A DNA stretch of 43,188 bases from a virus: UHGV virus genome UHGV-1381253; one strand, written 5' to 3'. The position numbers were made by a program, and so were the translations under genes. The notes under the pieces are model-generated. The model was not told the DNA's origin. It ran no database searches and was given only the letters and a program-made list of their open reading frames with translations. This document shows positions 8,392 to 34,808 of this stretch, in pieces (the first letter of the stretch is position 1; each line of letters begins with the position of its first letter).

Positions 8392-10164
8392 TTAGTATCC
8401 AAAACCAAACTCACCACTATCTAGTAAGTCTTGCAATGTTGGTGCGTCATAATCGTGATATTGAGCGTCACTCATGGCATTTATTATGGCGTCAAGTGAG
8501 TCAATTTTATTCCTGTTTATTTGCTTATCAATTGCAACGCTATCATTGTATTCTTTAATCATTGCATTGTATGCTGCACGATTCAATAAAGGGTTATTGG
8601 TGTGCATTACTTCACCTCTACGAATTAACTCACGCAGGGCTCTGGTTGGTGAAGATAAATAGTTAATTTTCTGTGGTACTTCAATTAGTTTTTTAGGGTA
8701 GGTTTTACTTAGATTAATCAAAGCCTTATCCATCATAAATGGATCATAATAAATACCAACCAATTGTAAGTCATTATAATCTATGAAATCACGTATCCAA
8801 TCACACATTTCTTCTGTATCAATTAAGCCATCTTCACGTTGTGAGATGTGAATGAGGTTCATTGCCTCATACTGTCTATAGGGTATTTTATCAATTGATT
8901 GTTTATGGTCTATACCTCCAACTGAAGACACAAAACCATGTGTATCTAATAATAGTTTGTGTTCTTCTTCTATTGGGATAATCCATGAAACGGCTGTCAT
9001 ATCTGATGTTCTTGCTAAGTCAATGCCAATATATACTTTTCTACCCTTAATATTATAATGATTGGGTGCTTTGACGGAATCCCACTCTTCTTTGGTTACA
9101 AAACTATCTTTAGATGATTGTACCCAAAAATTCATTTCTTTCGTTAACCAACCTGATAAATCCATTTTACCCTTGTATTCATCAAGTGAGTTGCGTTTAT
9201 GTTCCATCATTGAGTCGTATGCTTCTGGTATTTCAAACAGTGGGTTTGATTTAATCCAATTTTCTTCGTCATCTACTTCTGATAGACTATCCATTTCCCA
9301 GCAAAGAGCCAAATAAGCGTCACCTTTAACCTCTTCATTAAGTAATTTTTCAACGAATGGATATTCTACAGAGTGCATAGGCCCAGTTAGGTTTTTAGTA
9401 GTTGTTGAAATTATTAGTATTAATCCCTCTAATTGTTGAGATTGAGAGGATTCTAATACTTGAATAATTGCGTCATCTTTAGCTTCACCATATTCATCTA
9501 AAATACCGCATAATACATCTAGTCCATCAAGTGTATCAGCGTCACTTGATAGTGGTTTTACTGTTGATTCATCACTAGCTTCAATATCATATCTACGAAC
9601 AGTTGTTCTTTTTTTAACTTCTTTTGACACACTACGTAACGCAGTTAGCTGTGATTTGAGCATTCTGAAAACGATTCCTGCTTGCTCTTTTGTGTTTGCT
9701 GCTGCAACAACTTGACGACTGGCTGCTGGATTCTTACCAAACAAAAACTCATATAGTGCTATCCCTGAAACCAGTAACGACTTACCATTTTTACGTGCTA
9801 GTGAGATGTATGCTTTTCTAAAGCGTCTAGTATTATCTTTCTTTTTACGCCATCCATAGAGTAACCCAACAATAAATTTCTGAAAGTGGGCTAGTGTTGT
9901 GGTTTTGCGAGACTTAGGATCTGGAAGCATTTCAAGAAATCTAACTGGCGGTATTGCTTCCTCTGCCCTATAAATATATGGATATTTAGGGTCTTTTGAG
10001 CGTTCAATATCCTTCTGATGTCTTTCAATGGCTTTCTGTATTTTTTTACCAACTTTGATTTTAACTTTAATCGGTTTATAATAATCATCTTCTACTATAT
10101 ATTTACGTCCTTCAATCCATCCTGTTTCAATCAGATTGATATAATCTTGTACAAAGTCTTCCAT
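8392..10164 (-). CDS. terL: Terminase large subunit
   Basis: 590 aa. Walker A RKNGKS with the N-terminal ATPase domain, and a C-terminal nuclease region. Confidence 0.9.
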   Translation of the reverse strand: MEDFVQDYINLIETGWIEGRKYIVEDDYYKPIKVKIKVGKKIQKAIERHQKDIERSKDPKYPYIYRAEEAIPPVRFLEMLPDPKSRKTTTLAHFQKFIVGLLYGWRKKKDNTRRFRKAYISLARKNGKSLLVSGIALYEFLFGKNPAASRQVVAAANTKEQAGIVFRMLKSQLTALRSVSKEVKKRTTVRRYDIEASDESTVKPLSSDADTLDGLDVLCGILDEYGEAKDDAIIQVLESSQSQQLEGLILIISTTTKNLTGPMHSVEYPFVEKLLNEEVKGDAYLALCWEMDSLSEVDDEENWIKSNPLFEIPEAYDSMMEHKRNSLDEYKGKMDLSGWLTKEMNFWVQSSKDSFVTKEEWDSVKAPNHYNIKGRKVYIGIDLARTSDMTAVSWIIPIEEEHKLLLDTHGFVSSVGGIDHKQSIDKIPYRQYEAMNLIHISQREDGLIDTEEMCDWIRDFIDYNDLQLVGIYYDPFMMDKALINLSKTYPKKLIEVPQKINYLSSPTRALRELIRRGEVMHTNNPLLNRAAYNAMIKEYNDSVAIDKQINRNKIDSLDAIINAMSDAQYHDYDAPTLQDLLDSGEFGFGY

Positions 10165-10196
10165 TTATGTATCCTCCTTTTATACTATTCAATTAC

Positions 10197-10207
10197 ATTA
10201 TAGCATA
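10197..10207 (-). promoter_or_regulatory. Extended -10 promoter (TGcTATAAT) for terL, overlapping the upstream terminator U-tract
   Basis: Minus-strand sequence ttttttaTGCTATAATgtaattgaatagtataaaaggaggatacataaATG. Confidence 0.3.
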
Positions 10208-10239
10208 AAAAAGACTCCCTAGTTAGCTAGACTAGGGAG
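10205..10239 (-). terminator. Rho-independent terminator on the minus strand at the 3-prime end of the structured region
   Basis: Perfect 9-bp stem ctccctagt/actagggag with a 7-nt loop. It is followed on the minus strand by tcttttttat. Confidence 0.55.
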
Positions 10240-10299
10240 GTGTTAGTATCTGCTAGTATCCACGCCCTACGTTAAGTGGATACTAGCTTTATGTGTGCA

Positions 10300-10428
10300 C
10301 GTCATCAAATAGGGTCATACTATCACACTCTGCGCCAGATACTGTGGCGTGCGGTCGTTTACGTGCGCCGTTCACGACTGTTCAGTTTCCAACAGCAACC
10401 CTTTTTAACGTGGAGTGTGGTGAACCAC
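10300..10428. repeat. Copy A of the internal duplication inside the structured region
   Basis: Shares gtcatactatcac, ggtcgtttacgtgcgccgt, cacgactgttca and acagcaaccctttttaacgtggagtgtggtgaaccac with copy B. Confidence 0.8.
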
Positions 10429-10558
10429 GATTGCTCGCTGACGGTTAAGGTTTCCAACTCCGTCACAGTGCAAAGTATGGATACCGTCCCATACAGACCA
10501 ACGCTAGGCTAACCCGCCTGCGGGGGGACGTGAGTGACTAACTGCTTTGTCGTGCTTG

Positions 10559-10699
10559 TCGTCAAAGAGGGTCATACTATCACGCATTCGCTAGACACTA
10601 TAGCGAGCGGTCGTTTACGTGCGCCGTCCACGACTGTTCATTGGATATACAATGATATCCTAACAGCAACCCTTTTTATCGTGGAGTGTGGTGAACCAC
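10559..10699. repeat. Copy B of the internal duplication inside the structured region
   Basis: See copy A. One stem differs by a compensatory pair: cgcca/tggcg in A against cgcta/tagcg in B. Confidence 0.8.
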
Positions 10700-11025
10700 T
10701 GTGTGGTGTCCTACCTGGACAGATTCAGTATCAGGACTATGACGAGATAGCCAACGTTTCCTCTTAGGAGCTAAGGTTTCCAACTCTCCTAACGGTTGTT
10801 ACCCATAAGGTACTGACTGGAGTCAACGCTCTAAGTCGCAGCCAACGTTTTGTGTATGTCATTCTTTGAGGAATAAGAAATATACACTACCTTATATGTA
10901 CCGCTGTGAGCTAAGGTTTCCAACTCTCACACCGTTACTCATCAGAGTAAGTTTTAGCATCCCTCGCTTGCGGTGTCACGAGAGGTATTTTGTATGCCAC
11001 CTAACGCGAGTGAATAAATTATAAT

Positions 11026-12045
11026 TTAAAACTCACGTACCATAAACAACTTTTCGCACTTCTTGCCAACGTTAGCTCCTTGCATTGTAGATACCACGTT
11101 ATCAAAAGAATAAACACATTTGAATCTTTTATCTGATATCTCATAACTGCTTATGATAACCACGTTATCCTTAGCCATTTCATATGCCCAATCATAAAAT
11201 TCTTGGCTGTTGAACGATACACCGTAGGCATCGTGTGTATTTTCATATGGCGGGTCAAGATATAGAATAGCGTCTTTGACGTAAGAAAAGTCTTGATAAC
11301 TTAGGTTAGTTATAACTAGTTGTTCTAGTCGCTCTAGTCGCTCTACTTGGTGTAGCGGCTCTAGTTGCTTTAGTCGCCCTAGTTGCTGTAGTATCCTATG
11401 TTTCTCTGGTTTATCCTTAAAATCGGCAAAGTCATTGTTCTGGTTAGTTACGTTAGTTTTATAAGTTTCGGTTTGTTTATATCCGCTAAATACATCATGT
11501 TTTGCTATGATTTCTTTAGCTAAATTGTATTTTAATTCAGAATTTTGTTTTGAATATAGATAACCGCTACTATTATTTCCAAAACTGTTTATCAATAATT
11601 TTAAGTTGTCCGTGACGGTTTTTATTGCTTTTTCCTTAATCTCATAAAACTCATCACGGCTTATGATAAGGGTTTTAAGATAATCTCTATCGCTTTCTAG
11701 CACTTTGGTGAACATATCCGTTACATTCTTGTTTATATCGTTGTAATTGACTTCTAAGCCTTGTAACAAACACTCAGCAGTTATAGCCCCGCCGCCACCG
11801 AAGATGTCGTAAATTGTTTTGTCTGTTCCAAAGTTATCTTTGATAATTTGCACGATTTTCTTACTGATTTTCTTTTTTGAACCCACGTATGGAAGACCAA
11901 GAGCCTTACCTTTACGGACTGCTTTTTCGTTTAACTCTAGCAAAAAGTTGCCACCTCTCTTTTCCTTAATTGAAACAGTCAATCTGTTAATTATTATATC
12001 ACAAAATCCGACTTTTGTGATAATGGTGTATCTAATGTTTACCAC
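11026..12045 (-). CDS. DNA N6-adenine methyltransferase (Dam-like, D12 class)
   Basis: Motif X LPYVGSKKKISKKI, motif I DIFGGGGAI, motif IV YLDPPY, and the C-terminal VVIISSYE block. Located between terS and terL. Confidence 0.8.
   Translation of the reverse strand: MVNIRYTIITKVGFCDIIINRLTVSIKEKRGGNFLLELNEKAVRKGKALGLPYVGSKKKISKKIVQIIKDNFGTDKTIYDIFGGGGAITAECLLQGLEVNYNDINKNVTDMFTKVLESDRDYLKTLIISRDEFYEIKEKAIKTVTDNLKLLINSFGNNSSGYLYSKQNSELKYNLAKEIIAKHDVFSGYKQTETYKTNVTNQNNDFADFKDKPEKHRILQQLGRLKQLEPLHQVERLERLEQLVITNLSYQDFSYVKDAILYLDPPYENTHDAYGVSFNSQEFYDWAYEMAKDNVVIISSYEISDKRFKCVYSFDNVVSTMQGANVGKKCEKLFMVREF
11326..11406. repeat. In-frame tandem repeat, 9 bp x 9 units, inside the MTase TRD
   Basis: Units: ctagttgtt ctagtcgct ctagtcgct ctacttggt gtagcggct ctagttgct ttagtcgcc ctagttgct gtagtatcc. 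On the coding strand it encodes ILQ-QLG-RLK-QLE-PLH-QVE-RLE-RLE-QLV. Confidence 0.85.
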
Positions 12046-12091
12046 TCATTTGCTATAAATAGTATATCATAAACGTTTAGTTTAGTGTAGG

Positions 12092-12556
12092 TTATCCTTC
12101 AAACATTTTTGCGAATGGGTCAAGTACCTCTTTTTCTTTCTCTGCTGGAAGAATAATCTTCATTCTTGAATTGATTGTTAATCCCAGGTCATTGGTTGCC
12201 GTTTTAAGCTCTTTTGAATAGGAGTTCATGGCATTAACCCAAGGGTTTGCTTTACCTGTCTCAGGATCAATTGCGCCCATCTGTGCTACCTTCTCTACTG
12301 CTTCAGCGTATAGATAATTATAGTTACAATATCTAATGACTGTATTCACATCTAACTCACTAATAGGCAAGTCTCCTACATATGCTCCAATGCGATCCCA
12401 TTCATTAAAGGCTTGTGGCAATAAACCTGGTGGATAAAAACTGAAGTCTAGCTTCTCATAATTGTAAAGTACTTCTTCCTCCTTCTCACGCTCTTCTCGT
12501 TGCTGAGTGGTCAAGTTACCACTTTGAGCGTTTAATAATTTCCGTGGTCTTGCCAT
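12092..12556 (-). CDS. terS: Terminase small subunit (P27-family-like)
   Basis: 154 aa, immediately upstream of the packaging genes. N-terminal basic region and a typical TerS size. An HNH endonuclease and candidate cos region lie upstream. Confidence 0.7.
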   Translation of the reverse strand: MARPRKLLNAQSGNLTTQQREEREKEEEVLYNYEKLDFSFYPPGLLPQAFNEWDRIGAYVGDLPISELDVNTVIRYCNYNYLYAEAVEKVAQMGAIDPETGKANPWVNAMNSYSKELKTATNDLGLTINSRMKIILPAEKEKEVLDPFAKMFEG

Positions 12557-13140: not shown

Positions 13141-13393
13141 GGTGTCTAATGGGGGATAAATCATATTAGGGAAATAACATACTATATATAGTATGAGTCC
13201 TTTATTTTCAATACAAGAAACCAGTTTTAAATCACGTTTACGAGGGGAAAAGGGTGTTTTTGAAAGTTCATTTTTAGAATTTCGTGCGAAGAAGAGGGGG
13301 CAGCGATTAATTCGTTATAAAAAGGCGGGCGGGTAAAAACATTTTGGGTCTCCCTAAAATAATTTTGGCTGCGTGGCTGTTGATATGACGCTG
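13141..13393. other. Candidate cos / packaging-recognition region
   Basis: Non-coding stretch between the HNH endonuclease and the terS-proximal genes. GC-rich runs: gagggggcagcg, aaaggcgggcgggtaaaaac, gggtctccc. Perfect 18-bp palindrome catactatatatagtatg at 13178-13195. The HNH-cos-TerS arrangement is typical of cos phages. Confidence 0.2.
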
Positions 13394-13777
13394 TTACCTA
13401 CCTCTATTTTTCCAACTGTAGTTGTGTTCTTCCTTGTTGTGACACTCGTAACATATTGATTCTAAGTTATTTAATTCAAGTCTATGTTTCCATCCATTTG
13501 GACTTCTTAATTCTATCTTATGGTGAACCATATTAGCGTTGGTATACTTGCCTTGTGCTAAGCATACCTCACAGAGTGGTTGCTCCATTAGCTTGGCTCT
13601 ACGTGCATTCCTCCATTGTGTTGAATGATAGAACTCACTGTACTTCTTATTGCTATCATTGTATCTCACATGCTTATTGTATTGGCTATTGTTATACCCA
13701 CTATGCTCCGTACAATAGCGCTCTGGTAGCGTGACATAGTTGCGGCATGAAGCCACTGCACACTTGCGTTGTCTCAT
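13394..13777 (-). CDS. HNH endonuclease (terminase-associated type)
   Basis: C-terminal CEVC...HHKIELRSPNGW...NNLESICYECHNKEEH matches the HNH motif, and the N-terminus carries a CxxC...YCxxH zinc ribbon. Confidence 0.85.
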   Translation of the reverse strand: MRQRKCAVASCRNYVTLPERYCTEHSGYNNSQYNKHVRYNDSNKKYSEFYHSTQWRNARRAKLMEQPLCEVCLAQGKYTNANMVHHKIELRSPNGWKHRLELNNLESICYECHNKEEHNYSWKNRGR

Positions 13778-13820
13778 GGTGTTGCTCCTTCCGTCTATTG
13801 TATAGAAGAAAAGACTACTA

Positions 13821-14030
13821 TTATTTAGTAGTCTTCTTTGTATTCATACTCTTGTTAGCTTTATCTAATAAGTCTAAGTGAGTTGTGTCTTGTAACGGTT
13901 TGACTGACTCAGGTTCTGGTAATGGATCAGGTACCTTTAAGCGTTTATGTTTGGTACAGTATTGTGCTGGTAGCTTAACTGTTTCGTTACATCCTTCGTG
14001 GTTGCAAAACATGTATGGCAAAAGAACCAC
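13821..14030 (-). CDS. Hypothetical zinc-ribbon protein (69 aa)
   Basis: N-terminal CNHEGCNETVKLPAQYCTKH parallels the N-terminal motif of the HNH protein. Confidence 0.45.
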   Translation of the reverse strand: MVLLPYMFCNHEGCNETVKLPAQYCTKHKRLKVPDPLPEPESVKPLQDTTHLDLLDKANKSMNTKKTTK

Positions 14031-14053
14031 CTCCCTTCAGTATTAAATACGTA

Positions 14054-14236
14054 CTAGAAATTATAGTCTTGTTTCTTACGTACAATCATGTTATGATTCT
14101 TTACTATCTCAATTGCTTCTTCAAGTGTTGGTTCTTTAGTCTTAGTTGCTACCTTTTGTAGTTTACTTTCTAACTCACGATACTCTTTTAAGAGGTCTGT
14201 TTTATTTAGTGCTAGTAGTTGTTTGTCTGTCTTCAT
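14054..14236 (-). CDS. Hypothetical protein (60 aa)
   Basis: ORF in the leftward small-gene cluster. Confidence 0.35.
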   Translation of the reverse strand: MKTDKQLLALNKTDLLKEYRELESKLQKVATKTKEPTLEEAIEIVKNHNMIVRKKQDYNF

Positions 14237-14384
14237 TACTTAAGTCCTCCAACCTATTCCCAAGATATAGTAAGGCTTCATTAATATCATAGGTGCGTAT
14301 TCCTTGTTGATAACTATCATTAACTTTTTGGTCAATACAATACATACCAGTTTCTTCATCTAACGTGATTTCAATCTTTTTCAT
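14202..14384 (-). CDS. Hypothetical protein (60 aa)
   Basis: ORF with an RBS-like sequence upstream. It overlaps its neighbours in the cluster. Confidence 0.35.
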   Translation of the reverse strand: MKKIEITLDEETGMYCIDQKVNDSYQQGIRTYDINEALLYLGNRLEDLSNEDRQTTTSTK

Positions 14385-14584
14385 TTACCCTTACCTCCTA
14401 ATAATAACCAGCTCCACACGATAACTAGTTGTGCGATTGCAAAACCCCAATCTCCTTGTTGGAATAATTCATATGGTAACTTCATGCCTAAATAGATAGC
14501 AATGTAACCGAAACCAATGATACTTATTACAAGTAGTAAGATACTAAGTGCAAGTGTTAATAGATCAATAAGATTATCTTTCAT
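14381..14584 (-). CDS. Hypothetical membrane protein (67 aa)
   Basis: GAGGAGGAGA RBS and two hydrophobic helices. First leftward gene after the control region. Confidence 0.45.
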   Translation of the reverse strand: MKDNLIDLLTLALSILLLVISIIGFGYIAIYLGMKLPYELFQQGDWGFAIAQLVIVWSWLLLGGKGK

Positions 14585-15058
14585 TATATCTCCTCCTCTT
14601 TGTTTCTATTATATCATAGATGAGGGATACTGTGTGAGTTAAGTAAGCCAGTTATTAATGACAAAAAGTCAGCCTAAAATGGTCATTTTGTCACTAAATC
14701 GCTTGTTTTTGTCAGCGTTTTGTCATTAATTTTGACACCTAAAAACGCTGTAAACCTTGATAAATCTACATTCTTATTTTTATAATGACAAAATGACAAA
14801 ATATTATATATATAAAAAAATAAATTGTAATACTACATTATAATGTAGTAACATAGATATATGGGTTGGAATAAATTATTTTTTGTCATTGCGTCATTTT
14901 GCTAAAACTGGTCTCATAAACGTTGATATAATAGTATTCTTGTTGTAAAAACTAGTGACAAAATTAATGTCACTGTTTTGTCACTAGTTGAATTAAATAG
15001 TTGACAGTTACCTCAATAGATGATAAAATTGGTTTATACATAAGAAGGAGGAATTAAC
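14585..15058. promoter_or_regulatory. Divergent control region with about 10 copies of TGACAAAA/TTTTGTCA iterons and a 20-bp perfect palindrome. Candidate operator array and/or replication origin.
   Basis: Motifs at about 14659, 14687, 14705, 14718, 14731, 14785-14802 (tandem atgacaaaatgacaaaat), 14881-14900 and 14954-14990 (agtgacaaaattaatgtcactgttttgtcact). Palindrome tactacattataatgtagta at 14831-14850. Very AT-rich. Confidence 0.5.
15001..15029 (+). promoter_or_regulatory. Early rightward promoter TTGACA-17-TAAAAT with an extended TG
   Basis: ttgaca gttacctcaatagatga taaaat, followed by the conserved leader cataagaaggagg and an ATG at 15059. Confidence 0.6.
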
Positions 15059-33000: not shown

Positions 33001-33702
33001 TTGATTATGATCATTACATTATCAGGAGTAATTGGGGTAGGTAAATCCTCAATGACACAATTATTAAGCGAGTTATTAGAAACCAAAGCTGTTTATGAGC
33101 CAGTTGAGGATAACCCTCTACTGGAAAAGTTCTACGCAGACAAGAAAAAGTATGGTTTTCTATTTCAGATTGACATGTTATCAAAACGTTTTGAACTTAT
33201 TCAAGAAGCTATGAGTGTTAAAAATGGGATTCTTGATCGCTCAATTTATGAAGATTCAATATTTTTAAAGCAGTTATATGATGAAGGTGCTGTAGATAAA
33301 TTAGAGTTAGATGTATATACAAAATTATTAAATCGTATGTTAAAAGAATTAGAACCTTTACCTAAGAAATCACCAGATTTGATGATTGTTTTAAATTGTA
33401 GTTTTGAAGAAGAAATCAAGCGTATTAATAAACGAGCAAGAGAGTTTGAGAAGGTGGAAGAAGGTACTGAACTATATGAATACTTCAGAGACCATCACGC
33501 TAATTATCAAGACTGGATGGCTAAAGATTTAGGCTTCCCTAAATTAATCATAGATGTAACAGAACTTGACTATGTTAATAAGCCAGAACACCGCATGAAA
33601 GTACTAATGATGATATTAGATGAATTATTCCATGTAGGAGCAATTAGTGGTGAAGAACATAGCTATTTCTCTCAAAAAGCGTGTCTCTCACGAGCATTCT
33701 AA
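33001..33702 (+). CDS. Deoxynucleoside kinase
   Basis: P-loop LSGVIGVGKSS. The DRS motif ILDRSIYEDSIF. dNK family length. Confidence 0.8.
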   Translation: MIMIITLSGVIGVGKSSMTQLLSELLETKAVYEPVEDNPLLEKFYADKKKYGFLFQIDMLSKRFELIQEAMSVKNGILDRSIYEDSIFLKQLYDEGAVDKLELDVYTKLLNRMLKELEPLPKKSPDLMIVLNCSFEEEIKRINKRAREFEKVEEGTELYEYFRDHHANYQDWMAKDLGFPKLIIDVTELDYVNKPEHRMKVLMMILDELFHVGAISGEEHSYFSQKACLSRAF

Positions 33703-33713
33703 GCACTTTAAAT
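33681..33713. repeat. 33-bp perfect direct repeat, copy 1 (gtgtctctcacgagcattctaagcactttaaat), overlapping the dNK stop
   Basis: Identical to 35475-35507. The preceding 3 nt match 2 of 3. Confidence 0.9.
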
Positions 33714-33740
33714 AAATTAAACAAGGTGATTACCCATTAA

Positions 33741-33783
33741 AAAACAAAAAAAAAAACCACTGGTCTAACCAGTGGTTTTTTAT
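33741..33783. terminator. Bidirectional rho-independent terminator at the convergence of the early and late arms
   Basis: A16 run, stem aaccactgg/ccagtggtt with a 5-nt loop, then a T7 run. Confidence 0.7.
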
Positions 33784-34808
33784 TATAGACTCAGATAGAT
33801 ACTATCAATTCGCACATCATTCACTGCACCTTCGCCGTTAGCTTTATTCGCTCTACGCAAGATAACATCTACTTTTTTACCTTTGAACTGAGCTTTCTTA
33901 ACAGTTACGTCAAAACCAAGCTCTTGTCCACCTTGATAGCCATATGCTTTCTTCACATCTGGGCGTTTAATACCAGCGGATTGAACACGTGACAACTCGT
34001 TGTTTGTTCCATGTTGCATGAAGATAACATATGCATATCGTCCAATAGCTCCTTGCGGTTTATCAGGAACTAACCAACCAGCTACACGAATCTGATCTTT
34101 ACCATGACCATTAAAGTAGTCAAGTTTACCCCAAGCATTACCTTGATGTTTAGGTTTTGTAGCAGCTACTGCCTTATCATGTTGGCTAGGTGTTGAAGGT
34201 GTTACGTTAGCACCACTTGGAGGTGTTTGTCCACCTGTAGATGGAGCTTTACCATCTGGTTTCAAACTAGGGTTATTGTAATACTTAAGAACGTTTTTAA
34301 TCACATAATCCTTCATTGCGTTAGTTACATTAGCTGGCTGTGCCTGTGTTGAGTTGAAACCAGTGTGAATAATTAACGAACGTTTAGGACATTGCGTGGC
34401 TGAAAACTCATGATGTAGACGTACTGTATTGCGGTTAACAGGTAATCCATAATATTTCAAATCTTGTGCAATTTGCCAAAATGTATTTTCTTCAGCTTGC
34501 AAAAAGTCTTTTAATGGGGTTTGATCGTTACCACACACTTCATAACCAATATAGTTTGTATTACCATCAGAGTTGGCTGTATGCCAAGCTGCATTGTAAG
34601 TATCCTCAGTACGCCAGATTGTATTCTTGTCAATATAATAATGCGCAAATCCAGCAGCTAACTGATTGGTGTTCATTGCTGCTAAACGATTAGCCTCTTG
34701 TTTAGCTGTTGAGTTACCCCACGTATTGTGGAATACCACGCCTTTCACTGCACCAGGTCTACGTCCAGCTACACCACGTGTAACTGTTTTGTTGATTATT
34801 TCTACCAT
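33783..34808 (-). CDS. Endolysin: N-acetylmuramoyl-L-alanine amidase (amidase_2/PGRP) with a C-terminal cell-wall-binding domain
   Basis: VVFHNTWGN...HYYIDKNTIWR...NYIGYEVCG...RLHHEFSATQCP is the amidase_2 core. The C-terminal ~140 aa are a binding module. Confidence 0.8.
   Translation of the reverse strand: MVEIINKTVTRGVAGRRPGAVKGVVFHNTWGNSTAKQEANRLAAMNTNQLAAGFAHYYIDKNTIWRTEDTYNAAWHTANSDGNTNYIGYEVCGNDQTPLKDFLQAEENTFWQIAQDLKYYGLPVNRNTVRLHHEFSATQCPKRSLIIHTGFNSTQAQPANVTNAMKDYVIKNVLKYYNNPSLKPDGKAPSTGGQTPPSGANVTPSTPSQHDKAVAATKPKHQGNAWGKLDYFNGHGKDQIRVAGWLVPDKPQGAIGRYAYVIFMQHGTNNELSRVQSAGIKRPDVKKAYGYQGGQELGFDVTVKKAQFKGKKVDVILRRANKANGEGAVNDVRIDSIYLSL

Follow-up and report, generated by a model that had tools for sequence, protein, structure and literature searches.

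Among the structured RNAs known from phages, ROOL and GOLLD, which we take to be the Rfam families RF03087 and RF01998, are among the closest in general character to the element described here: like them, it is phage-borne, non-coding, GC-enriched and structured over hundreds of nucleotides (nt), and it occurs in phages of Lactobacillales. The element is located in the UHGV virus genome UHGV-1381253, whose 43,188 nt were analyzed at full length and are called the window in the following. The match to its relatives identifies the source phage as an Enterococcus faecium siphophage of the IME-EFm1 / IME-EFm5 / 9184 / BUCT630 group. On the minus strand, terS (12092-12556, Terminase_4) is followed by a D12 methyltransferase (MTase) gene (11026-12045), the region in question (10165-11025) and terL (8392-10164). 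An earlier reading made from the letters of the DNA (in the following, the sequence-only reading) had proposed one large ornate RNA between the MTase gene and terL, belonging either to the ROOL or GOLLD type or to a new class. It is the last of these options that held. The region carries a new, previously undescribed RNA family of narrow distribution, in which a conserved unit of ~170 nt is combined with interchangeable hairpin modules, and the size of ~800 nt in the source phage goes back to partial duplication and mosaic recombination and not to a single ornate architecture.

The covariance-model scan of the whole window with Rfam 15 gave no match at the gathering thresholds, by which membership in ROOL, GOLLD, packaging RNA (pRNA), riboswitch, ribozyme and intron families was rejected. 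At E <= 10, only two chance-level matches were obtained in 10100-11150 (PreQ1 with E = 3 and NsiR1 with E = 4.5), and the Rfam search of 18 related loci returned nothing besides one unrelated tRNA. GOLLD is often found next to tRNA genes; ARAGORN detected neither a tRNA nor a tmRNA in the whole window. Unlike ROOL and GOLLD with their large and fixed multi-junction architecture, the element consists of ~170 conserved nt and swappable hairpins.

The pRNA of phi29 is comparable as a phage RNA of ~120-170 nt with two complementary loops that covary between phages and with a position tied to packaging. It occurs in phi29-like podophages with protein-primed replication, whereas the source phage is a cos siphophage with terS, terL and HNH. 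In addition, no sequence similarity to pRNA and no match to its Rfam model was seen, the pairing of the loops is most simply intramolecular, and the core is absent in one relative. The boxB hairpin of the lambda nut site, which is bound by the N protein, and the put RNA of HK022, which modifies RNA polymerase, are likewise sequence-specific loops or structured RNAs between a promoter and a terminator. In contrast to these, the hairpins with a conserved loop (L-hairpins) of the present element are optional and have a 15-nt loop that is much larger than boxB, and its pseudoknotted core is without counterpart in put. With CsrB/RsmZ and phage pseudo-ToxI it shares repeated hairpins or units, an invariant recognition sequence on variable stems and a copy number that varies by genome; unlike these sponge or decoy RNAs, it has no tandem repeat array and no known binding protein, and to our knowledge its loop motif AGUUGGAAACCUUAR is not a CsrA or ToxN site. 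The lambda PR'-6S RNA-tR' unit and a Stx-phage derivative small RNA illustrate that a terminated by-product RNA can have a trans function of its own (PMC7547250). The layout of that unit is similar in that a promoter is followed by a short terminated transcript directly upstream of the late genes. The present system differs in having no known Q-like antiterminator, in having a separate promoter after the terminator, and in that its RNA is far more structured and modular.

The evidence for the new family comes mainly from an alignment of 25 distinct homologous sequences in RNA sense (A1), on which five helices (Pa, Pb, Pc, H1 and T) and two pseudoknots (PK1 and PK2) were written. These make up a conserved 3′ core (window 10207-10379, ~170 nt) that is kept in the 25 homologues. 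Its parts, in the 5′ to 3′ direction of the RNA, are as follows.

10354-10378, minus strand: helix Pa, accessory; another module takes its place in 6 of 26 phages
10333-10349, minus strand: helix Pb, whose loop AGUAUC (10338-10343) provides the 5′ strand of PK2
10293-10328, minus strand: helix Pc with a highly conserved loop of 26 nt, in which CCCUAUUU (10307-10314) is the 5′ strand of PK1
10252-10287, minus strand: helix H1 of 12 base pairs (bp) with the loop 10264-10275, in which ACGUAGGG (10265-10272) is the 3′ strand of PK1
10245-10251, minus strand: AGAUACU, the 3′ strand of PK2, pairing with the Pb loop; 100% of cells paired
10207-10239, minus strand: intrinsic terminator T, a 9-bp stem with an invariant loop and a U-tract (stem 10239-10215 followed by the T-run)

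Over the whole structure, 90.7% of 1321 cells are paired, compared to 25-46% if the partners are slid by 1-3 columns. Changes on both sides of a pair occur at 17 of the 53 pairs, and the covariation score amounts to 0.217 (<=0.052 after sliding). Neither the observed score nor the observed percentage of paired cells was reached by any of 500 shuffles. For the pseudoknots alone, 93.1% of the cells are paired versus 28-54% in the slid controls, with scores of 0.163 and <=0.037, respectively. Helix H1 contributes six pairs that are changed on both sides, Pb (98.4% of cells paired) shows exchanges of C-G to U-A and of C-G to A-U, Pc carries an exchange of U-A to C-G in nine sequences, and in T, where all cells are paired, two pairs are changed on both sides. 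A long-range helix of GGUUG with CGACC in place of Pa was dropped, as its variants, inspected by eye, give A.C or A.A mismatches.

PK1 is formed by CCCUAC in the Pc loop and GUAGGG in the H1 loop, PK2 by AGUAUC in the Pb loop and GAUACU directly 3′ of H1. The former switches as a block, with CCCUAC/GUAGGG in 16 sequences and CCCUCU/AGAGGG in nine. The U.C mismatch that is usual at columns 72/111 is resolved in two ways, as G-C in L198 and as U-A in L049 and L075, and the source phage has a U.G pair at column 71. PK2 varies to G.U only, except for one compensatory exchange of A-U to G-C in L009, which was found by eye and is masked in the alignment by an adjacent insertion.

The strand of the RNA could be deduced from the kind of non-canonical pairs, since G.U pairs on one strand appear as C.A mismatches on the other. 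On the minus strand, 15 G.U cells were counted in Pb, Pc, T, PK1 and PK2 as against no A.C cell, and for H1 the ratio is 16 to 8. Together with the co-oriented U-tract and promoters, the 15 to 0 ratio identifies the minus strand as the RNA strand. The folding energies of both strands are better than those of shuffled sequences, with z = -3.0 for the minus and z = -6.75 for the plus strand. The plus strand was rejected on the basis of the G.U / A.C asymmetry and the signal orientation despite its better z-score, which was set aside as a property of the single, duplicated sequence.

A coding function of the region was considered as well, either for small proteins as annotated in KEN phages or as a pseudogene, and is scarcely credible. 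Inside the region there are two open reading frames (ORFs) of 77-78 amino acids (aa) on the plus strand and shorter ones, of 30-35 aa, on the minus strand, and in some records hypothetical proteins have been annotated there. However, the 77-78 aa ORFs are not conserved, the annotated ORFs vary from phage to phage, and no conserved ORF was found between terL and the MTase gene. Among the relatives, insertions and deletions of 1, 2, 10 and 27-29 nt break the frame, the variable columns are distributed over the codon phases as 24/20/17, so that the 3-nt periodicity of a coding sequence is not seen, and the covariation preserves base pairs and not codons. Compensatory pairs, the lack of a coding signal and a defined strand with predicted start and stop signals, by which structured non-coding RNAs are generally recognized, were all found. 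It is therefore highly probable that the region is a structured non-coding RNA gene on the minus strand, in the same sense as terS and terL and as the sequence-only reading had placed it. In the comparison of homologues that this reading had suggested as a test, the covariation, the frame-breaking insertions and deletions and the missing codon periodicity all came out in favor of an RNA. A description of this RNA could not be found in the literature searched, nor could transcriptome data on this phage group.

The family comprises ~35-40 related phage genomes and contigs. Matches to the region were obtained in 24 phage records (22 beyond the terminator alone), about a dozen IMG/VR contigs and five metagenome contigs. 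In bacterial genomes and prophages (185,579 genomes), no close relative of terL and no real match to the pattern was found. When IMG/VR was searched with the 15-nt loop motif and with a 15-mer from the core, most matches were due to chance, lying inside unrelated genes without the flanking stems. The family is thus confined to one group of virulent Enterococcus phages. In the E. hirae phage EH802P1 (L014 2501-2633), which is quite different and larger (68.5 kb), a segment made up of the terminator and its flank is ~90% identical to window 10207-10248 and scores 38 bits with the covariance model of the core (R1); the terminator module seems to move between phage groups.

The gap between terS and terL was cut from the terminator to the terS stop in 26 phages and measures 277-742 nt. 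Its layout is terS stop, one or two promoter units, variable hairpin modules, core, T, TGCTATAAT promoter, ribosome binding site (RBS) and terL. Each promoter unit consists of a TACACA-like -35 box, a 17-nt spacer and TGnTATAAT and overlaps an inverted repeat CACAAA...TTTGTG. In the census of the 26 phages, promoter units and T were found in all, the Pb-Pc-H1 core in 25, Pa in 20, the L-hairpin in 19, the mD hairpin or a variant of it in 18 and the X hairpin in six; the regular expressions used missed some core elements with 1-nt deletions, which alignment A1 shows to be present. Inserts between the core and T occur in 7 of the 25 sequences, six of them being the X hairpin of 27-29 nt and one, in L009, measuring 10 nt.

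Outside the core, the source phage version (~820 nt) is the longest and most redundant seen, with one full core, one orphan partial core, three L-hairpins and two mD hairpins. Its modules are given in RNA order.

10932-11012, minus strand: predicted 5′ hairpin module mA, common to vb_GEC_Ef_S_9, dArtagnan and others according to sequence alignment
10905-10931, minus strand: L-hairpin 3, stem UGUGAG/CUCACA, loop AGUUGGAAACCUUAG
10792-10904, minus strand: predicted hairpin module mB, common to BUCT630, 9184 and IME-EFm1 (93% identity over q593-736)
10765-10791, minus strand: L-hairpin 2, stem UAGGAG/CUCCUA, loop AGUUGGAAACCUUAG
10634-10764, minus strand: module mC with the second copy of the mD hairpin (10681-10699) and an extended CUGUU...AACAG hairpin (10634-10666)
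10505-10635, minus strand: partial second core with Pa, Pb and Pc and without H1 and terminator, identified by its R1 match and the duplication
10471-10545, minus strand: junction with hairpins at 10513-10524 (CCCG/CGGG) and 10475-10494, unique to the source phage
10439-10465, minus strand: L-hairpin 1, stem UGACGG/CCGUCA, loop AGUUGGAAACCUUAA
10379-10429, minus strand: first mD hairpin (10409-10429, loop UUCACCACACU), A-rich linker and short CUGUU...AACAG hairpin (10379-10395)

The direct duplication already noticed in the sequence-only reading could be delimited to 10295-10428 and 10552-10699 (88-97% identity). With R1, the full core at 10207-10379 scores 201 bits and the partial copy at 10505-10635 90.8 bits (E = 4.8e-24). 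As the Pc loop of the partial core reads CCCUCU and its partner AGAGGG is missing in the source phage, this copy is probably an orphan left by recombination; a similar pair of partial and full core is present in the metagenome contig L224. The mosaic is also visible in the BLAST pieces, of which q731-839 (window 10895-11003) is 98% identical to L004, whereas no relative matches the junction piece q306-370. The small hairpin CCCGCCTGCGGG of this junction, predicted as cccgc/gcggg, is present at 10513-10524; it was ruled out as a terminator because no U-run follows it.

The three hairpins with a conserved loop that had been pointed out are the L-hairpins, with the common loop YTAAGGTTTCCAACT on three different perfect 6-bp stems. 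In the family, 21 instances occur with three stem types (UGACGG, UAGGAG and UGUGAG), every stem being a perfect 6 bp, and the 15-nt loop A-GUUGGAAACCUUA-R shows one change in these 21 instances. To judge from these comparisons, a near-invariant loop on differing stems is the signature of a putative sequence-specific recognition hairpin. The CUGUU/AACAG stem closes loops or inserts of very different length among the phages, and mD has, as judged by eye, different closing base pairs in different phages.

In composition, the region stands out as proposed. Its GC content is 0.46 for 10165-11025 and 0.495 for the subpart 10401-10800, thus 0.46-0.50 compared to ~0.35 for the genome, and it is poor in ORFs. 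Whether it is also the longest non-coding stretch, as had been stated, depends on the gene calls, since the two plus-strand ORFs mentioned above lie inside it and 13778-15058 is likewise without ORFs >=75 aa. The perfect hairpin that had been described as an 11-bp stem at 10249-10287 is real but has 12 bp (10252-10263 with 10276-10287) and corresponds to H1.

The signals for transcription and the neighboring genes were assigned as follows.

12061-12089, minus strand: promoter unit P1 (TACACT, 17-nt spacer, TG-extended TATACT), a consensus match directly after the terS stop (12092-12094)
11993-12021, minus strand: promoter unit P2 (ATCACA, 17-nt spacer, TG-extended TATAAT), scored 10/12 plus the TG extension
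11026-11990, start approximate, minus strand: D12-class N6-adenine DNA methyltransferase gene (Pfam PF02086)
10165-10209, minus strand: TG-extended TGCTATAAT promoter and RBS AAGGAGG of terL, the downstream neighbor outside the RNA, conserved in relatives

Behind terS, an equivalent of P1 (TGTGGTATAAT type) is present in 26 of 26 relatives, and units of the P2 type are the second promoter in many of them. The inverted repeat CACAAAAGTCGGATTTTGTG, overlapped by P2, is a possible candidate operator. At the downstream end, both the intrinsic terminator and the separate terL promoter after it were predicted correctly by the sequence-only reading; T is found in 26 of 26 relatives, and the terL RBS is preceded by TTTATGCTATAAT at 10197-10209. 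The further claim that the region forms a transcription unit of its own stands for this end only. No convincing promoter could be found directly upstream of the region, where just a bare TATAAT remains that was not called, and the family promoters lie upstream of the MTase gene.

The MTase gene is absent from the gap between terS and terL in the 13 annotated relatives, where the element fills the gap directly. As its closest phage relatives are those of Lactococcus 936-type phages (~63% aa identity), it is, on this sequence evidence, a putative foreign gene placed between the family promoters and the RNA and does not belong to the RNA family. As the GTG listed as its start (12045) overlaps P2, translation probably begins further downstream. 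Because of the position of the gene between promoters and RNA, the RNA of this phage is probably transcribed together with the MTase gene, forming the 3′ part of that transcript, and shares its promoters with the inserted gene. The MTase itself is likely an anti-restriction passenger gene. Other genes also occupy the locus in relatives, such as an HNH endonuclease gene or a small ORF between terminator and terL (L010 1894-2433, Bp29; L013 2152-2412, EF36P1) and free-standing HNH genes beside terS in L003, L005, L011 and L012. The passenger genes fit a mosaic, recombination-prone region.

The window contains 22 matches to TG-extended -10 promoters of the TTTRTGNTATAAT type, more than the 7.8 expected. 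On the minus strand they are located at 1788, 2415, 3086, 8334, 10197, 11993, 37990, 41222 and other positions, which suggests that the late gene block is punctuated into several short transcription units.

A comparable region is present in the E. faecalis Efquatrovirus phages, whose terL is 65-69% identical to that of the source phage. In 106 records, the gap of 370-490 nt between terS and terL contains a TGTGGTATAAT promoter behind terS, followed by hairpins and a terminator, with TGCTATAAT preceding terL. Position, this layout of promoter, hairpins, terminator and TGCTATAAT, and a covarying pseudoknot in the 3′ domain are thus shared, but homology to the E. faecium-type core could be detected neither by sequence nor by covariance model. 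R1 gave no match in the Efquatrovirus gaps, and homology of the two regions was rejected, only the 9-mer GGUUGCUGU being common to both. By eye, the 3′ domain of the E. faecalis type shows a compensatory exchange of the long stem AAGUG/CACUU to AACUG/CAGUU, and its internal pseudoknot covaries from UAUGUGG/CCACAUA to UAUACAG/CUGUAUA. Example loci are L213 847-1217 and L214 1427-1913, and further ones are in L245, L251, L255 and L260; none has an Rfam match. A slot for a non-coding RNA between terS and terL seems to be general to enterococcal siphophages. Three unrelated viral contigs (L235 7475, L248 12735 and L258 2684) also contain the 16-mer GGTTGCTGTGCGACCA of the E. faecalis-type RNA, in the common context ...GGTTGCTGTGCGACCATACTGTCGGGTGCGACATGTAAAAA..., which belongs to no Rfam family; in L235, a tRNA is located ~130 nt upstream.

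With respect to function, we tentatively favor a trans-acting, stable and compact scaffold or decoy RNA. Throughout the family, the RNA very probably starts at one promoter or two of the sigma-A type placed right behind terS and ends at T, and a separate promoter then serves terL. Pb, Pc and H1 are very probably locked together by PK1, joining the Pc loop with the H1 loop, and by PK2, joining the Pb loop with the strand 3′ of H1. In the favored function, the pseudoknotted core and the terminator would form a nuclease-resistant body. The near-invariant loops of the L-hairpin, Pc and mD would serve as recognition sites for one or more proteins, and the varying module copy number would mark the RNA as an accessory host-interaction or counter-defence element and not as an essential packaging part. 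This function was ranked first because of the invariant loops on covarying stems, the variable copy number, the passenger genes at the locus and the lack of a cis-regulatory logic. A single figure of 0.5 for the whole explanation, identity and mechanism together, is a compromise between 0.85 for the former and 0.35 for the latter.

Several observations weigh against this explanation. No partner protein is known, and the constant position of the core directly upstream of the terminator and the terL promoter would fit a cis role as well. L176 lacks Pb-Pc-H1, so that even the core can be dispensed with in at least one phage. The promoters are consensus matches only, and the plus strand has the better z-score. 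Moreover, the sequences are closely related, so that the independent events are few (~4-5 for PK1 and ~3 for PK2, one of the latter compensatory). Finally, the one phenotype connected with the region has a simpler explanation. K38.2, a derivative of phage Aramis evolved by the Appelmans method, gained growth on a refractory strain and carries an exchange of precisely this intergenic region as well as of a tail region (PMC11210271). The Aramis version is short (296 nt) and without L-hairpin or mD, the dArtagnan version long (564 nt). Since the receptor-binding region was swapped as well, and accounts for the host-range change more simply, K38.2 gives no more than circumstantial support for a host-interaction role.

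A more specific form of the trans-acting function, rather unlikely at present, is an RNA-based host-interaction cassette with a new fold, whose loops would neutralize a host RNA-binding effector in a pseudo-ToxI-like manner, for instance an abortive-infection or toxin-antitoxin nuclease. If this is true, the modules evolve by recombination in an arms race, which would explain the mosaicism, the duplications, the anti-restriction MTase at the site and the selection of the K38.2 swap, and the slot in >100 E. faecalis phages would hold a second family of like kind. An antisense RNA regulating phage genes was rejected, because the complementarity of the whole RNA to the phage mRNAs does not exceed chance (one 12-mer versus 2.6 expected, no 13-mer versus 0.8 expected); for the L-loop, too, no complementary site beyond chance was found in the phage.

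Among the alternatives to a trans-acting RNA, a cis-acting operon boundary or antitermination leader has to be taken most seriously, although we consider it doubtful. T would insulate the terL late operon from the transcription started at terS, P1 and P2, and the core, or a protein on the L-hairpins, would modify RNA polymerase or set the read-through into terL. This would agree with the order of promoter, structured RNA, terminator and late genes, which is kept in 26 of 26 E. faecium-type phages and, with a different sequence, in the Efquatrovirus phages, as well as with the place of the core just upstream of T and the similar TG-extended -10 promoters that punctuate the late region. Read-through would however be unneeded in the presence of a strong, conserved terL promoter after T. 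In addition, 7 of the 26 phages are without L-hairpins and one is without the core, no conserved alternative pairing with T exists, and free duplication and shuffling of modules would be unusual for a dedicated polymerase-modifying element. The same terminator is central to an improbable further explanation, in which the double-pseudoknot core is the small-molecule aptamer of a riboswitch that controls T and hence terL. A domain that is compact and pseudoknotted, keeps its unpaired nucleotides highly conserved and lies 5-7 nt upstream of a terminator in most members is what such an RNA might look like. When transcripts cut before the 3′ arm of T were folded, however, no conserved antiterminator or structure competing with the terminator appeared in 25 sequences, and the 5′ arm of T is without a conserved alternative partner. 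The 27-29-nt hairpin or 10-nt insert between core and T, present in 7 of 25 sequences, the independent promoter after T and the lack of an Rfam riboswitch match also speak against it.

Two further alternatives arise from the location inside the packaging module. The region could act as DNA, as a terminase or cosB-like binding site, a hot spot of recombination or homing or a single-strand initiation signal, or its hairpins could be incidental. The recombination mosaic, the HNH genes flanking it in relatives and the invariant terminator loop are compatible with such a role, which is nevertheless slightly less probable still than a riboswitch. The cos of IME-EFm1, mapped by experiment (PMC4445525), matches window 13297-13325 upstream of terS, with cos itself at 13297-13305 and thus ~2.3 kb from the region, and the L-loop sequence does not recur near it. 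Both the 15 G.U versus 0 A.C cells and the covariation of the paired loops suggest a single-stranded RNA from one defined strand, in agreement with the co-oriented promoter and U-tract terminator. A packaging RNA like that of phi29, in which PK1 would be intermolecular and form an RNA ring on the portal-terminase motor, would suit a gene between terS and terL, and the 6-8 nt of loop-loop complementarity covary between phages as in pRNA. This is very improbable: terS, terL, portal and HNH form a complete cos system in the source phage, of a type that works without an RNA in other phages, the pRNA model of Rfam is not matched, one relative is without the core, and loops that are 40-50 nt apart in one molecule pair more simply within it. 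The probabilities assigned to all these hypotheses sum to less than 1, the remainder standing for possibilities not listed.

The phages of this group and their E. faecalis cousins are under development as a therapy against vancomycin-resistant enterococci, and their genome records leave the region blank or carry spurious small ORFs. The new family adds to the short list of structured phage RNAs and is an easily deletable target. Should the RNA affect host range or the evasion of defence, it would matter for phage engineering and cocktail design; should it control terL expression, it would represent a new way to organize late transcription in phages of Firmicutes.

Elsewhere in the window, a bidirectional terminator A10-CCACTGGTCTAACCAGTGG-T6 is located at 33736-33784, where plus- and minus-strand gene blocks converge. 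The stretch 33642-33784 had been a candidate for a second RNA element and was rejected as just this terminator, whose stem and loop are like T and give a weak R1 match (21.6 bits). The cos site of the window reads GGGGCAGCG followed by ATTAATTCGTTATAAAAAGG, as a plus-strand match with one mismatch to the mapped end of IME-EFm1, and is surrounded by an HNH gene (13394-13777) on one side and small ORFs upstream of terS on the other.

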